Shown here: piece by piece, positions 30,662-53,470 of the stretch
How the letters are laid out: each line of letters opens with the position of its first letter
Position numbering within the stretch: the first letter of the stretch is position 1
Origin: Escherichia phage 04086
Sequence record: OR842557
Direction: 5' to 3' (one strand)
Length of the DNA stretch: 64,000 nucleotides
Notes under the pieces: model-generated
The model's input: only the letters and a program-made list of their open reading frames with translations
Told to the model about the DNA's origin: nothing
The model's database searches: none
Position numbers and translations under genes: made by a program

Positions 30662-30738
30662 GGCCCTGTAGCTCAATGGTTAGCAGCAGTCCCCTCATAA
30701 GGGAAAGGTTACCAGTTCAAATCTGGTCCGGGTCACCA
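30662..30738 (+). tRNA. tRNA with CAU anticodon (Met or Ile2)
   Basis: 77 nt; acceptor stem, T-arm accag-TTCAAAT-ctggt, anticodon loop cuCAUaa, encoded CCA; D-arm irregular and one acceptor mismatch. Confidence 0.6.
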
Positions 30739-30743
30739 ACTAT

Positions 30744-30818
30744 GTCCCGCTGGTGTAATGGATAGCATACGATCCTTCTAAGTTTGCGGTCCTGGTTCGA
30801 TCCCAGGGCGGGATACCA
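30744..30818 (+). tRNA. tRNA-Arg (anticodon UCU)
   Basis: 75 nt; 7-bp acceptor stem gtcccgc/gcgggat, anticodon stem-loop cgatc-cuUCUaa-gtttg, T-arm cctgg-TTCGATC-ccagg, encoded CCA; T4 also encodes a tRNA-Arg(UCU). Confidence 0.8.
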
Positions 30819-36851: not shown

Positions 36852-37091
36852 ATGTGGTATTACGCTCCGATGTCCGATAAGTCTAATGAACCGGTACGCA
36901 TTACTCGTGCCAAGTTTAAAAAGATTTACGGCTTTGCTTATAAGAAGTCTGATTACGGTGTTCGTTTTGAAGATGCCCACTGTATCAATGACCCTTATGC
37001 AGAAGAAATCTCTAATGAGATAATTCCTATCGTTGAGAGTAATTCCAATGATATGTGGGAATTGCATAACACTTACGTTGCCGAAATTTAA
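36852..37091 (+). CDS. hypothetical protein
   Basis: 79-aa ORF with GAGGAG RBS. Confidence 0.5.
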   Translation: MWYYAPMSDKSNEPVRITRAKFKKIYGFAYKKSDYGVRFEDAHCINDPYAEEISNEIIPIVESNSNDMWELHNTYVAEI

Positions 37092-37110: not shown

Positions 37111-38070
37111 ATGATGTTAGTTATTGGTTCTCGTGCACTGCACCAAGCTGGTTTGATTGAAAGTAAGTATATCGAAAATTCTGATTGGGATTTCATTGCC
37201 GACCAAGGCTCATGGAACCACTTTAAAGCACGTATGTTCGGTGCTCATGTACACGTTGACAATCCTGATGTTCAGGCTTTCAAATGTATGCATAATGGTA
37301 AAGAAACCTATTTCGAAGCTTATATCGTCCGGGCCCTGACTAATGTACGAGAAATTACCGGTGAGCTCCAAGATGAAGACTACACCTCAAGCTATCGTCT
37401 CCTGAAATATGCTGAAACCCATATTAAAAAGGACCGTCTTACAGGTTTCTATTGGGCAACGCCTGATATCTGTCTGGCTATCAAAACCTCTCATCGTTTC
37501 CTGAAGAATAATCCATTCTTCCTGAAAACTATGTCCCACATCAAATACCTTCGTAATAAAGGTATCACCCTGAATGAAGAACTCCAGGAAATTATGCTGC
37601 AACGTCAAAAAGAAACGTTGAGCTATTCCCATCCTAAATTGGATGTAAACAAATCATCGTTCTTTAATGATACCATTTATACCCTAGACCATGACTCTAT
37701 TCATGAAGCAGTGGCATTGGCAGGGCGCCCTGCATATACCTTTTATATGAAGGAAGGTTCTGAAGTCATGACCTCTCGTGAGAAGTTCGAGGCTTTGCCT
37801 GAAGCTATTAAACTGGCCGGTGTGTATGAAGAAACTTGTGTCCTGGCCCTAGAACGTTCACAGGTTCCTAATGACTTCAATATTTCACCATCATTAAGTT
37901 TCTATATGGCTCTTGAGAAAGTGTGTACCTCAATCACTTCAGGTTGGTTCCGCGAGTACGCCTGGGAAAACTACCAAGCTGTGGTTAATATGTATAAGGC
38001 TCTAGGTGAAAACGACTACATCAAGCGTTTCCAAGATAACCATCATTTAATTCGTCCTTTCGAAAAATAA
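37111..38070 (+). CDS. hypothetical protein with weak nucleotidyltransferase-like motif
   Basis: 319 aa from ATG 37111 (RBS GAGG); N-terminal VIGSRALHQAG...ENSDWDF loosely resembles a GS...DxD pattern and the N-terminus of ORF 50846. Confidence 0.45.
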   Translation: MMLVIGSRALHQAGLIESKYIENSDWDFIADQGSWNHFKARMFGAHVHVDNPDVQAFKCMHNGKETYFEAYIVRALTNVREITGELQDEDYTSSYRLLKYAETHIKKDRLTGFYWATPDICLAIKTSHRFLKNNPFFLKTMSHIKYLRNKGITLNEELQEIMLQRQKETLSYSHPKLDVNKSSFFNDTIYTLDHDSIHEAVALAGRPAYTFYMKEGSEVMTSREKFEALPEAIKLAGVYEETCVLALERSQVPNDFNISPSLSFYMALEKVCTSITSGWFREYAWENYQAVVNMYKALGENDYIKRFQDNHHLIRPFEK

Positions 38071-49825: not shown

Positions 49826-50386
49826 ATGATTATTGAAACATCCGGGTTGTTTGGTGACCTGACCGCTGAAGTAGTTGATAATGCAATTGTGCTTTCACAA
49901 GAAGACGATAAAATCGTACTGACTATCCAAGATATCAAACCACTTTACGATTTAAAGGTTTTGGACAAACACCAATATCTTAATGGTAGTTTTAGAGGTG
50001 TATTTAATATTAACGATGATATGTGGGCTCAGATTTATAACCATGACAACGGGTTTAATTTGGAAACGGATGGGGAATGTCTAAGCATTAGTGATTCTGC
50101 TAATTTCTTTAAATGTATTTTTAAACTGTTCCAGGAAGAATGCCATCCAGAAGTTGAATGGAAAGTCCCTGGCCAAGATGCGGTAATTCGTTCTAGTGAA
50201 ACCTTTGAAGGCGACGAAGAAGAACTGGATTACGATACTGAATTAACCGTGTATCAATATCAGGGTCGTGATTTGCTATCCTTGACCCAAAGACACGATG
50301 GTGAAAGTGAAGTGGTATTTACTAAAGACGAACTAAAAGTTTTAGTCTCTTATCTGAATTCTGTTATCCCAACTATGAACTCTTAA
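49826..50386 (+). CDS. hypothetical acidic protein
   Basis: 186-aa ORF with GAGG RBS. Confidence 0.5.
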   Translation: MIIETSGLFGDLTAEVVDNAIVLSQEDDKIVLTIQDIKPLYDLKVLDKHQYLNGSFRGVFNINDDMWAQIYNHDNGFNLETDGECLSISDSANFFKCIFKLFQEECHPEVEWKVPGQDAVIRSSETFEGDEEELDYDTELTVYQYQGRDLLSLTQRHDGESEVVFTKDELKVLVSYLNSVIPTMNS

Positions 50387-50396
50387 GGAAAATATT

Positions 50397-50849
50397 ATGA
50401 TTATTAATACAAACTCTTGGCACGCTAAACTTCACGATCGTTTTTATGACCGTCATTCTCGACCACACTCTCTGTGTGCTTATTTCTGGAAAATGGTATG
50501 GGCTTGTTTTGCTTGTGCTGTTGTTGCAGGTAGTACGCTTTTTGGATTAACTGTTGCAGGTGCTGGTGTATTAGAGCATTTCTTTGTATTAAGTACTCCT
50601 GTTCTGTTGAGTCTTGGGTTTGTTTTAGGGTTGGTTGCAATAGCTCTTATTATTGCGCTATCCATTGGGTTGGCATTTGGTGCGATGAATTTACACGCAT
50701 GGTATGATGCCCGTAGAGAAGAAAAGGAATGGCAACGTATTAAAGCTGAGCGTGAAGGCCGAGAAACTAAAGAAAATATCGTTATTCAATACATTAAAGC
50801 TCGTAAATCTAAGGTCTGTCCGGTAATCCACTTCGAGGACAAAGAATGA
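50397..50849 (+). CDS. predicted membrane protein
   Basis: 150 aa; several hydrophobic helices followed by a charged C-terminal tail. Confidence 0.5.
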   Translation: MIINTNSWHAKLHDRFYDRHSRPHSLCAYFWKMVWACFACAVVAGSTLFGLTVAGAGVLEHFFVLSTPVLLSLGFVLGLVAIALIIALSIGLAFGAMNLHAWYDARREEKEWQRIKAEREGRETKENIVIQYIKARKSKVCPVIHFEDKE

Positions 50850-51856
50850 GAACAGTTATGAAAGGCTACTTCGGTAGCCACCTTTATGGAACAAGTACTC
50901 CAGAATCTGATGTTGATTTTAAAGAAATCTTTGTTCCACATCCGCGTGATATTCTGTTAGGTACGGCTATGAACCATACCAACCTGAATACGAATAACAC
51001 TGCTTCCAAAAACACTAAAGATGATGTTGACCACGAGCTTTACAGTCTGAAATATTTCTTTAAACTGGCGGCTGAAGGCGAAACCGTTGCTCTAGACATG
51101 ATTCACACTCCACCTGAACTGGTGGTTAAATCTGATTTACCTGATGTATGGAAATTTATCCAAGACAATCGTTCTCGGTTCTATACAACCAACATGAAAG
51201 CCTATTTAGGTTATGTCCGTAAGCAAGCTTCTAAATATGGTGTTAAAGGTTCTCGACTGGCTGCTCTGCGTGGTGTACTGGCTATTGTTAACCAGATTCC
51301 TGAACAGTGGGTTGATTATCAAGAAGATGGTTCTACTAAGCAACGTCGCACTAAGGTAGAAGATATCAAACATCGACTCCCTGAAAACGAGTTCTGTGAA
51401 TGGGTATTCCATAACCATGAGAAAACAGGACCTCAAACGTTCTATACTGTTCTCGGACGTAAATACCAAACCACTCTGTCATTAATCGAGCTCAAGCAAT
51501 CTCTTAATAAGCTCGATGCGGAATATGGTGAACGTGCTCGTAAGGCTGAAGCTAACGAAGGTATTGACTGGAAAGCTCTGAGCCATGCTTATCGTGCTGG
51601 TTATCAGTTGAAGGAAATCTATCAAACCGGTGACCTCCAATATCCTTTACGTACGGCACCGTTTATCCTTGAAATCAAACAAGGGCTTCATGCTTTTAAA
51701 GATGTACAGGCTGAACTTGAAGCTATCGTTGATGAAGTCGAAACTAATGCCATCTGGGCGGCCAAGAACGGTATGCCTGATAAGGTGGACATGAAGTTCT
51801 GGGACAAGTTTGTTGAAGAGGTATATCTTGACAACCACAATTCCTATTATCGTTAA
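50846..51856 (+). CDS. polymerase-beta-superfamily nucleotidyltransferase-like protein
   Basis: 336 aa; N-terminal GYFGSHLYGTSTPESDVDF fits the GS-x(9-13)-DxD minimal nucleotidyltransferase signature; start overlaps the upstream stop. Confidence 0.5.
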   Translation: MRTVMKGYFGSHLYGTSTPESDVDFKEIFVPHPRDILLGTAMNHTNLNTNNTASKNTKDDVDHELYSLKYFFKLAAEGETVALDMIHTPPELVVKSDLPDVWKFIQDNRSRFYTTNMKAYLGYVRKQASKYGVKGSRLAALRGVLAIVNQIPEQWVDYQEDGSTKQRRTKVEDIKHRLPENEFCEWVFHNHEKTGPQTFYTVLGRKYQTTLSLIELKQSLNKLDAEYGERARKAEANEGIDWKALSHAYRAGYQLKEIYQTGDLQYPLRTAPFILEIKQGLHAFKDVQAELEAIVDEVETNAIWAAKNGMPDKVDMKFWDKFVEEVYLDNHNSYYR

Positions 51857-51863
51857 TGAAGAA

Positions 51864-52052
51864 ATGAAGGTCTTCTTATCATATGGAAGACCTCATAAAA
51901 CTCGACGTTGGTATCTTGAAGCTGTCTGTAAAGAAACCGGACGTCGAGTCAATATCAAGTACGCGTGCAAACCTACGCCTAAACAGACAAGACGATTTGT
52001 TAACTGGGCTATAAATGATATCCGCTTCTATAATTTTTGGAGCGCTATTTAA
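51864..52052 (+). CDS. hypothetical basic protein
   Basis: 62 aa from ATG 51864. Confidence 0.4.
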   Translation: MKVFLSYGRPHKTRRWYLEAVCKETGRRVNIKYACKPTPKQTRRFVNWAINDIRFYNFWSAI

Positions 52053-52116
52053 ATGCTTTAAAAACTTTAGTATACAATAAACTTACTCAATAATGAGTAT
52101 TACAAAGGAAATTATT

Positions 52117-52374
52117 ATGAAAATGTTAGTTATCGGCTTTTTAGCAAGTGTTATGTCTTTTAGTGTTATGGCTACTGAAGGTGCTGGCGCCCCAGGTGCT
52201 GGCGGTCCTTCCAATGGTTCATCTTCAGCATCCCATTCTCAAGGTATCGAGAACATCAAATCTAGTTATGTAAATACCACCCATGGTAAAGCTCAGGAAG
52301 CTTGGGCTAAAGGCCGAGTAGTTACTGATTCTGTTTTCTGTCATATGCCTAAATATGTAGGCTGTAAGAAATAA
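52117..52374 (+). CDS. small secreted protein
   Basis: 85 aa from ATG 52117; signal-like MKMLVIGFLASVMSFSVMA then a Gly/Ala/Ser-rich region. Confidence 0.45.
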   Translation: MKMLVIGFLASVMSFSVMATEGAGAPGAGGPSNGSSSASHSQGIENIKSSYVNTTHGKAQEAWAKGRVVTDSVFCHMPKYVGCKK

Positions 52375-52380
52375 GTTAAT

Positions 52381-52404
52381 AAGGAACCTTAGGGTTCCTT
52401 TTTT
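52381..52404 (+). terminator. intrinsic terminator
   Basis: 8-bp stem aaggaacc-ttag-ggttcctt followed by TTTTTT. Confidence 0.7.
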
Positions 52405-52423
52405 GGGTTTAGTGCAAAAAAGA

Positions 52424-52452
52424 GTTTACACCCTCGTAGAGCATGTTATTAT
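52424..52452 (+). promoter_or_regulatory. early promoter cassette (GTTTAC-17-TATTAT)
   Basis: GTTTAC 52424-52429, TATTAT 52447-52452, then agacctatcaaatctactgagtgaaatggagaata leader. Confidence 0.55.
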
Positions 52453-52489
52453 AGACCTATCAAATCTACTGAGTGAAATGGAGAATATA

Positions 52490-53470
52490 ATGTTAACTAT
52501 CAAAATCAACAAAGGTATCTATCGCGGTAATGAAATCTCTGGTACGTTCATGAGTTCAGGTAAAACCTGGTTCCCTAATAAAATTCATGAATCTGAAGCT
52601 CACCTCGGCGATGGTAAGGTATTTGTACAGATTGACGGTGTTGAACGTGGTGTATGGGTGTTCAAATGTGACGTTGAAATGGAAGGTGCTGAAGCTCCTG
52701 TAGTGGTTACTGAATCCGCTGAAGAAATGAAACATCGCATCAACAAACGTTTTAAAGTAATGAACATGATGACTAACGGAATCATCGATGGTAAAATTCG
52801 TTCCCTTATCATCTCTGGTGCCGCAGGTATTGGTAAAACGTATTCTTTGGATAAAGCATTACAGAATGCCCACGAAAATGAAACTATCGAATATAAATCA
52901 ATCAACGGAAAGATTAGTGGAATCGGTCTTTACGAGCAGCTTTGGAATAACCGCGGCCCTAATAGTGTTCTTCTTATCGATGATGTTGATGTATTCTCTG
53001 ATATGGATATCCTGAACCTGTTAAAAGCAGCATTGGATACCGGTGAAAAACGTAAGGTGTGCTGGAGCACTTCAAGTTCTTACCTCGATGATAAAAATAT
53101 CGATAAAGAATTCGAATACGAAGGCACCATCGTGTTCATCACCAACGTTGATATTGACCGTGAATTAGAGCGTGGAACTAAACTTGCTCCACACCTCCAG
53201 GCTTTAGTATCTCGTTCAGTTTACTTAGACCTCGGAGTTCACTCTAACGAAGAGATTATGGTTCGTGTTGAAGACGTTATCCTGTCTACTGATATGATGC
53301 AAAATCGAGGTTTGACTGATTCTGAGACTTATCAAGCTTTAGCATGGATGAAGGCTAATGTATCTCGTCTTCGTAACGTATCATTACGTACAGCTCTTTA
53401 TCTGGCGGACTTCATCGCCACCGATAAAAATGACTGGAACGAAATCGCTGAAGTTACACTTCTGAAATAA
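52490..53470 (+). CDS. P-loop NTPase (Walker A and B) of unknown function
   Basis: 326 aa from ATG 52490; Walker A ISGAAGIGKTYS and Walker B VLLIDDVD; N-terminal domain of about 110 aa without motif. Confidence 0.6.
   Translation: MLTIKINKGIYRGNEISGTFMSSGKTWFPNKIHESEAHLGDGKVFVQIDGVERGVWVFKCDVEMEGAEAPVVVTESAEEMKHRINKRFKVMNMMTNGIIDGKIRSLIISGAAGIGKTYSLDKALQNAHENETIEYKSINGKISGIGLYEQLWNNRGPNSVLLIDDVDVFSDMDILNLLKAALDTGEKRKVCWSTSSSYLDDKNIDKEFEYEGTIVFITNVDIDRELERGTKLAPHLQALVSRSVYLDLGVHSNEEIMVRVEDVILSTDMMQNRGLTDSETYQALAWMKANVSRLRNVSLRTALYLADFIATDKNDWNEIAEVTLLK

Follow-up and report, generated by a model that had tools for sequence, protein, structure and literature searches.

NrdC.11 and the RlaP family

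RlaP proteins (Pfam PF10127, 'RNA repair pathway DNA polymerase beta family') were characterized in a December 2025 preprint on the biochemistry of two Pseudomonas enzymes, PfRlaP from P. fluorescens and PaRlaP from P. aeruginosa (PMC12776372). Both enzymes add one or two nucleoside monophosphates (NMPs) to the 3'-OH of RNA, prefer nicked-tRNA mimics and Mn2+, and are inactive on DNA and protein; the RlaP crystal structure consists of a nucleotidyltransferase (NTase) domain and a C-terminal helical domain (PMC12776372). It was proposed that RlaP replaces nucleotides lost to 'smart' ribotoxins, e.g. RloC, prior to ligation (PMC12776372). A comparative study of jumbo phages, published in 2021, had found that the distribution of RlaP mirrors that of RNA ligases, and predicted that RlaP restores the nucleotides taken off by RloC-type nucleases (PMC7824862). 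The NrdC.11 protein of phage T4 sits in cluster 5 of the RlaP similarity network (PMC12776372). The present analysis concerns the nrdC.11 orthologue of Escherichia phage 04086 (sequence record OR842557), of which a stretch of 64,000 nucleotides, referred to as the window, was analysed, together with a second NTase-fold protein that the same window encodes in the open reading frame (ORF) 37111-38070.

The nrdC.11 orthologue (ORF 50846; positions 50846..51856, + strand) encodes an RlaP-family (PF10127), Pol-beta-type NTase of 336 amino acids (aa), as indicated by Pfam, by phrog_388, by the annotation of phage IME08 and by identity to T4. The window comes from a coliphage that is T4-like and of the Dhakavirus (JS98/IME08) type, and the segment that carries the gene shares 93-96% DNA identity with KIT01, C6, IME08 and related phages. 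A preliminary description of this DNA, made from the letters alone, had placed ORF 50846 in a tk-nrdC block. This placement holds, since the annotation of IME08, which is 95.6% identical, puts the gene between tk and nrdC. The N-terminus of the protein reads MRTVMKGYFGSHLYGTSTPESDVDF. The nrdC.11 ATG shares the sequence ATGA (50846-50849) with the stop of the upstream membrane-protein gene, and a GAGG is found 8 nt 5' of this ATG.

T4 NrdC.11 (NP_049709) is 82% identical to the window protein over all 336 residues. T4-type nrdC.11 orthologues and the window gene occupy the same slot, from mobD.1 (or a membrane-protein gene) to nrdC.10. Unlike in T4, however, no mobD homing-endonuclease gene adjoins nrdC.11 in the window, and a small-ORF insert of variable kind parts nrdC.11 from nrdC.10. 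That NrdC.11 is a nucleotidyltransferase is already annotated and known, and is not a new finding: a match of nrdC.11 orthologues to the COG3541 nucleotidyltransferases was published in 2006 (PMC1524935), and RefSeq gives the label 'nucleotidyltransferase' to the NrdC.11 proteins of T4, IME08, WG01 and VR20. Among T4-type phages nrdC.11 is a conserved accessory gene. It is dispensable in the laboratory, because viable genome-reduced T4 mutants have the nrdC.11-mobD.3 region among their lost fragments (PMC9825161).

Family assignment and active site of NrdC.11

ORF 50846 matched the Pfam RlaP profile with 41.1 bits (E=2.2e-10), the gathering cutoff of PF10127 being 23 bits, and matched phrog_388 'nucleotidyltransferase' with E=6e-133. 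The preliminary description had proposed a Pol-beta-superfamily nucleotidyltransferase on the basis of a GS-x(9-13)-DxD signature, and both profile matches agree with this proposal. The ORF was confirmed and carries GS-x10-DxD in the motif GSHLYGTSTPESDVD (G10 S11 ... D22 x D24; 50873..50917, + strand, coordinates verified). Taken alone, a GS...DxD motif is weak: in the 167 six-frame ORFs that have 80 aa or more (27,877 residues), the relaxed form GS-x(9-18)-DxD occurred three times, and ORFs 50846 and 37111 account for two of these occurrences. The real support for ORF 50846 is statistical and comes from the Pfam and phrog_388 scores. A scan of 1.84 billion cluster representatives yielded 3139 relatives of NrdC.11 at E<=1e-3, 793 of them reaching 1e-30; among the matches listed, the relatives are mostly full length, with about 320 aa. 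When 55 diverse relatives (32-83% identity) were taken individually, 54 matched RlaP on their own, the best with E=2.2e-19.

In an alignment of 265 relatives, every sequence has G10, D22 and D24, and 263 have S11. The GS-x10-DxD motif is genuine, its catalytic residues being conserved across this alignment. A third acidic residue, which the preliminary description proposed to look for downstream, is also present: all 265 sequences have either Asp or Glu at position 62, 256 have Asp at position 60 and 260 have Asp at position 84. From this alignment, D60-V-D62 (51023..51031, + strand) is the candidate third catalytic carboxylate and D84 (51095-51097, + strand) the alternative candidate. One of D60, D62 and D84 would thus be the third metal ligand, an assignment that is kept at candidate level because the N-terminal part of the structure model is unreliable. 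Closer to the C-terminus, DWKAxSHAxR is essentially invariant in the same alignment (K243 in 264/265, H247 and R250 in 265/265). In the window protein this signature of the predicted C-terminal helical domain reads DWKALSHAYR (51566..51595, + strand); it is the most conserved NrdC.11 peptide and was chosen for the search of related loci. Residues K243, H247 and R250 presumably bind triphosphate or RNA. The helical domain is preceded by a beta-rich insert of about 70 residues.

At the position of Asp60, the T4 RefSeq sequence (NC_000866 6436-7446, minus strand) differs from these 256 relatives and has Asn, and it has an ambiguous X at Trp102. Both could go back to an error in the early sequencing or to a lesion carried by the laboratory strain, and they matter if T4 serves for testing NrdC.11 function.

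NrdC.11 resembles the RlaP family in an above-threshold profile match, in the Asp residues of the catalytic motif and in a predicted layout of NTase domain and helical C-terminal domain. ORF 50846 very probably encodes an active RlaP-family NTase.

The preliminary description had listed CD-NTases and AbiEii-type toxins among the members of the superfamily. The superfamily was correctly named, but the specific family is RlaP (PF10127) and neither of those two, as no CD-NTase or AbiEii profile of Pfam, NCBIfam or PADLOC matched NrdC.11. The sole NCBIfam match was a motif-level one to MntA (E=0.065), and the PADLOC scan matched no defence-system profile. Sequence and profile searches of the PDB with ORFs 50846 and 37111 returned nothing meaningful, and no solved RlaP structure surfaced in them. 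These scans bear on the idea that NrdC.11 makes or intercepts signalling nucleotides, either as a CD-NTase/cGAS-like enzyme or as an anti-CBASS protein. We regard such a role as extremely improbable: the Pol-beta superfamily motif that it shares with these enzymes is all that speaks for it, whereas CD-NTase, SMODS and other defence profiles were missing from the Pfam and PADLOC results, RlaP enzymes act on RNA 3'-OH ends (PMC12776372), and effector or sensor genes are not conserved nearby.

Genomic context of NrdC.11 homologues

The cellular context was analysed in a sample of 80 bacterial and archaeal loci with full-length homologues at 34-50% identity, in which the neighbours were clustered and the recurrent ones checked against Pfam. 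RtcB was found near the NrdC.11 homologue in nine loci, a Hen1 methyltransferase with Pnkp-associating domain in eight, Pnkp (kinase-phosphatase-ligase) in seven, often with its end only a few bases from the NTase start, and TROVE/Ro60 in four. At least one of these four genes lies within 5 kb in 17/80 loci, and several are directly adjoining; of the 50 loci flanked by 3 kb or more on either side, 12 have the same repair genes in this range. According to an informal estimate, 17/80 is far above what would be expected of genes present in no more than about one copy per genome. The proximity of the NrdC.11 subfamily to RtcB and to Pnkp/Hen1 repair genes in cellular genomes is a further likeness to the RlaP family.

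The NrdC.11-like genes of the four TROVE/Ro60 loci, bacterial or archaeal, adjoin the TROVE/Ro60 (Rsr) gene, sometimes with RtcB as well. The NrdC.11 subfamily is linked to RNA quality-control modules of the Ro60/Y-RNA type.

The cellular neighbours also bear on whether NrdC.11 is an offensive or regulatory NTase, one that tags host tRNA or RNA 3' ends in the manner of MenT/AbiEii and so shuts down translation in the host or, like MntA, nucleotidylates a protein such as a HEPN-type toxin. This explanation is unlikely, since the cellular members of the subfamily are found in Pnkp/Hen1 and RtcB repair operons and not beside HEPN or antitoxin genes. Moreover, the significant profile is RlaP and not one of the MNT or DUF1814 families, the characterized RlaP enzymes label no proteins (PMC12776372), and the PADLOC scan gave no match.

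In phages, a homologue of the upstream membrane-protein gene (phrog_944; 50397..50849 in the window, + strand, its stop overlapping the nrdC.11 start) was present near NrdC.11 in 42/80 viral loci. The nrdC.10 gene adjoins nrdC.11 in T4 and IME08, lies close to it in the window, and is found within 6 kb downstream in 36/80 viral loci. These observations would fit an obligate two-gene module, for example an NTase that is regulated by an ATPase or targets one. Such a module is nevertheless quite unlikely. NrdC.10 is missing within 6 kb in the other 44 viral loci, including three phages with a 99% identical NrdC.11 and every one of the phages at <=51% identity, and it is missing from 80/80 cellular loci. 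In the window itself, the two genes are parted by a variable insert of 546 bp, a terminator-like hairpin and a promoter-like site. NrdC.10 was rejected as an obligate partner of NrdC.11 on the basis of this distribution, and is better described as a syntenic neighbour.

Judged from sequence alone, the neighbours kept in distant viral loci are NMNAT/Nudix-like, Nampt-like, Band-7, tk and similar genes. In phages at <=52% NrdC.11 identity, genes resembling NMNAT/Nudix fusions and Nampt (NAD salvage) lie within a few kb.

Proposed role of NrdC.11

On balance, and by analogy with the Pseudomonas enzymes, we infer that NrdC.11 is a template-independent RNA 3'-end NTase that extends damaged tRNA by one or two nucleotides before ligation. 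Family membership, conservation of the catalytic residues, the association with RNA repair in cellular loci, and the presence elsewhere in the IME08 genome of pseT (polynucleotide kinase/phosphatase) and rnlA (RNA ligase 1) were computed here. The chemistry (1-2 NMPs, 3'-OH, Mn2+) is taken from Pseudomonas RlaP, and the phage protein would have the same activity, with damaged tRNA as its putative target in vivo.

The proposed mechanism is as follows. In the N-terminal NTase core, G10-S11 and the carboxylates D22, D24 and D60/D62 would bind two divalent metals and a nucleoside triphosphate (NTP), and the helical domain at the C-terminus would help, through K243, H247 and R250, to hold the triphosphate and/or the RNA. 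NrdC.11 would then extend the 3'-OH of a broken RNA by one or two NMPs in a template-independent way. The likely substrate would be the 5' half of a tRNA that was cut by a host anticodon nuclease and then trimmed, as by nucleases of the RloC type. After this addition, the phage PseT kinase/phosphatase and RNA ligase 1 could reseal a full-length anticodon loop. NrdC.11 would in this way act as a dispensable counter-defence accessory.

Several points weigh against this proposal. The characterized Pseudomonas RlaP enzymes belong to cluster 1a of the similarity network and NrdC.11 to cluster 5, and NMP addition is an activity known for PfRlaP and PaRlaP but not for a phage NrdC.11. The Pfam RlaP alignment of ORF 50846 spans only positions 25-142 of the 249 in the profile, its N-terminal half. 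In the preprint, the authors concede that random nucleotide addition would yield mostly wrong products (PMC12776372). As to genomic context, 63/80 cellular loci have no recognised RNA-repair neighbour, and none emerged among 40 distant viral NrdC.11 loci. In phage genomes nrdC.11 neither adjoins nor forms an operon with pseT or rnl genes; its location outside any RNA-ligase operon is a difference from RlaP.

If NrdC.11 indeed fills in tRNA, this step would round off the classic Pnk/Rnl1 repair pathway of T4 and would explain how phages could answer 'smart' anticodon nucleases such as RloC. Since the fill-in hypothesis is already in the literature, the contribution of the window is limited to one more orthologue and some supporting context.

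A second NTase-fold protein encoded by ORF 37111

ORF 37111-38070 (37111..38070, + strand) encodes a second NTase-fold protein, which is RB69 ORF134c-like and consists of an N-terminal DUF7277 and a C-terminal DUF7275 domain. The preliminary description had noted its similar length and a looser version of the motif. Both are real: the protein has 319 aa against the 336 of NrdC.11, and in its motif, GSRALHQAGLIESKYIENSDWD, the spacer of 17 residues exceeds the canonical 9-13 (GS-x17-DxD, with G6 S7 ... D25 x D27; 37126..37191, + strand, coordinates verified). A third acidic residue, E69, is encoded at 37315-37317 (+ strand). Pfam places DUF7277 at residues 2-101 and the helical DUF7275 domain at residues 120-305 (37468..38025, + strand), and the protein also matches phrog_2141 (unknown function). 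The ORF finder extends the frame to a TTG at 37033. The right reading is 37111-38070, because the homologues all start with MMLVIGS or MLVIGS and because GAGGA precedes the ATG at 37111.

Of 117 cluster representatives of the family, 115 retain G6 and 115 retain S7, and D25, D27 and E69 are found in 116 apiece. Gordonia phage Miskis and bacteriophage DSS3_PM1 have homologues of only 28-29% identity, and in these, too, the GS and DxD residues are kept. The closest structural neighbour of ORF 37111 is MenT1 (PDB 8an4), and not an RlaP-type protein. As the motif residues are near-absolutely conserved in the 117 representatives and fold matches were obtained, ORF 37111 can be assigned confidently to the NTase-fold enzymes, and its catalytic motif is intact. 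In DUF7275, the invariant residues are K125, H128, H174, H194, D195, H198, E240, E241, E248 and R249.

The preliminary description had further suggested that ORF 37111 is a remote paralog of ORF 50846. This is correct at the level of superfamily and fold, but neither BLASTP nor two profile-profile comparisons gave a signal of specific kinship. The best BLASTP match between the two proteins had E=2.8, and the hhalign probability was 0.2% with a shallow and 0.4% with a deep NrdC.11 alignment. The two proteins do have similar lengths, each has at its N-terminus the GS...DxD...acidic pattern of an NTase core and behind it a predicted helical domain, and in that domain each has a signature resembling K-x(1-2)-SH-x(0-2)-R (KTSHR at 125-129 and KALSHAYR at 243-250), features that could have arisen if one gene had been duplicated in the phage lineage and the copies had then diverged. 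Such an origin is nonetheless very unlikely. The two proteins belong to different Pfam families with no cross-match at E<=5, their domain layouts differ, the beta-rich insert occurs in NrdC.11 alone, and ORF 37111 is structurally closest to MenT1. ORF 37111 is a separate, MenT1-like NTase-fold lineage (DUF7277 + DUF7275) and not a demonstrable paralog of NrdC.11.

Compared with MenT1 and the AbiEii toxins, ORF 37111 is phage-encoded and has an additional, highly conserved domain of 180 residues, DUF7275. A lenient Pfam search (E<=5) of 36 DUF7277/DUF7275 members gave DUF7277 and DUF7275 only, with no NTase, HD or AbiEii/DUF1814 match. No invariant Asp was found 15-22 residues past K125, where motif IV would be expected by comparison with K137 and D152 of MenT1, and the neighbour clusters of 80 viral loci contained no recurrent adjacent small partner that could be an antitoxin. 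As profile match, motif IV and a conserved neighbour resembling an antitoxin are all lacking, membership of DUF1814/AbiEii was rejected. ORF 37111 shows no profile similarity to class II CCA-adding enzymes or to minimal NTases (MNT/KNTase, ANT(2''), LnuA), which have other C-terminal domains, CCA-enzyme motifs not having been sought.

The DUF7277/DUF7275 family was found in 733 phage records, where the label is almost always 'hypothetical'. The hosts of these phages include Escherichia, Acinetobacter, Aeromonas, Pseudomonas, Vibrio, Gordonia and Streptomyces. A single submitter label, 'putative nucleotidyltransferase' in Acinetobacter phage Meroveus, agrees with the assignment made here. The family can be annotated as an NTase-fold enzyme and is a reasonable target for biochemistry.

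Possible role of the ORF 37111 family

ORF 37111 is probably an RNA 3'-end enzyme too. The neighbours of its homologues include RNA-repair genes. In one jumbo-phage lineage (contigs of 350-390 kb), a T4-type Pnk gene lies about 5 kb upstream of the homologue, with a metallophosphoesterase and an ATP-dependent ligase downstream, and this order is kept as the homologues diverge to about 52-55% identity. In DSS3_PM1, an RNA ligase 2 gene, which itself follows a metallophosphoesterase gene, is located 1.2 kb upstream of the homologue. A tblastn search with the neighbour genes of the window found none of them beside the distant homologues in three metagenome contigs. Genes for tRNA also occur nearby: a tRNA array lies 1.4 kb downstream of the homologue in Gordonia phage Miskis, and tRNA genes are present within 6 kb in 18/80 viral loci of the ORF 37111 family compared with 5/80 NrdC.11 loci, counts that are not independent as many of the loci are related. 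In the window, the tRNA genes nearest to ORF 37111 lie 6.3 kb upstream of it, at 30662-30818, and encode tRNA-Met(cat) and tRNA-Arg(tct).

It is conceivable, although doubtful, that DUF7277 and DUF7275 form an undescribed phage-specific family that joins a MenT1-like RNA 3'-end NTase to an HD-like phosphohydrolase and serves a second kind of tRNA-end healing. In such an enzyme, H128, H174, D193-H194-D195, H198 and E240-E241 would form a metal-dependent, HD-like phosphohydrolase site. The enzyme would partner NrdC.11, Pnk and RNA ligase in T4-like and many other phages, and could repair 3'-CCA ends that were extended, trimmed or pyrophosphorylated by host toxins (MenT/AbiEii-type or toxSAS-type). 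The MenT1-like fold, the repair-gene neighbours and the nearby tRNA genes are weak hints in this direction, none of them decisive.

Genes and signals around nrdC.11

The mobD.1 orthologue (window 49826-50386) matches Pfam T4_y05I_N and T4_y05I_C, 'y05I-like putative transcription factor', and forms one apparent transcription unit with nrdC.11. A terminator-like hairpin at 52381..52400 (+ strand) would close the nrdC.11 unit, and a promoter-like site at 52425-52452 lies just 5' of nrdC.10; both are consensus matches only. As promoter and terminator matches were no more numerous than those in shuffled sequence, this sketch of the transcription units is tentative.

The nrdC.10 orthologue (52403..53470, + strand) encodes a P-loop AAA/STAND-like NTPase. 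Its Pfam matches to AAA_14, AAA_22 and nSTAND are all under threshold, and there is a weak C-terminal match to HTH_37. The PHROG alignment begins at residue 30, and the true start is probably the ATG at 52478 or at 52490.

In IME08, nrdC.10 begins 22 nt past nrdC.11; in the window, the two genes are separated by the variable insert at 51857-52402 (546 bp). Just four phage records cover at least 80% of the length of this insert, with about 80% identity. Inside it, ORF 52093-52374 encodes a protein of 93 aa whose N-terminus is hydrophobic and signal-like and which also contains a Gly/Ser-rich segment.

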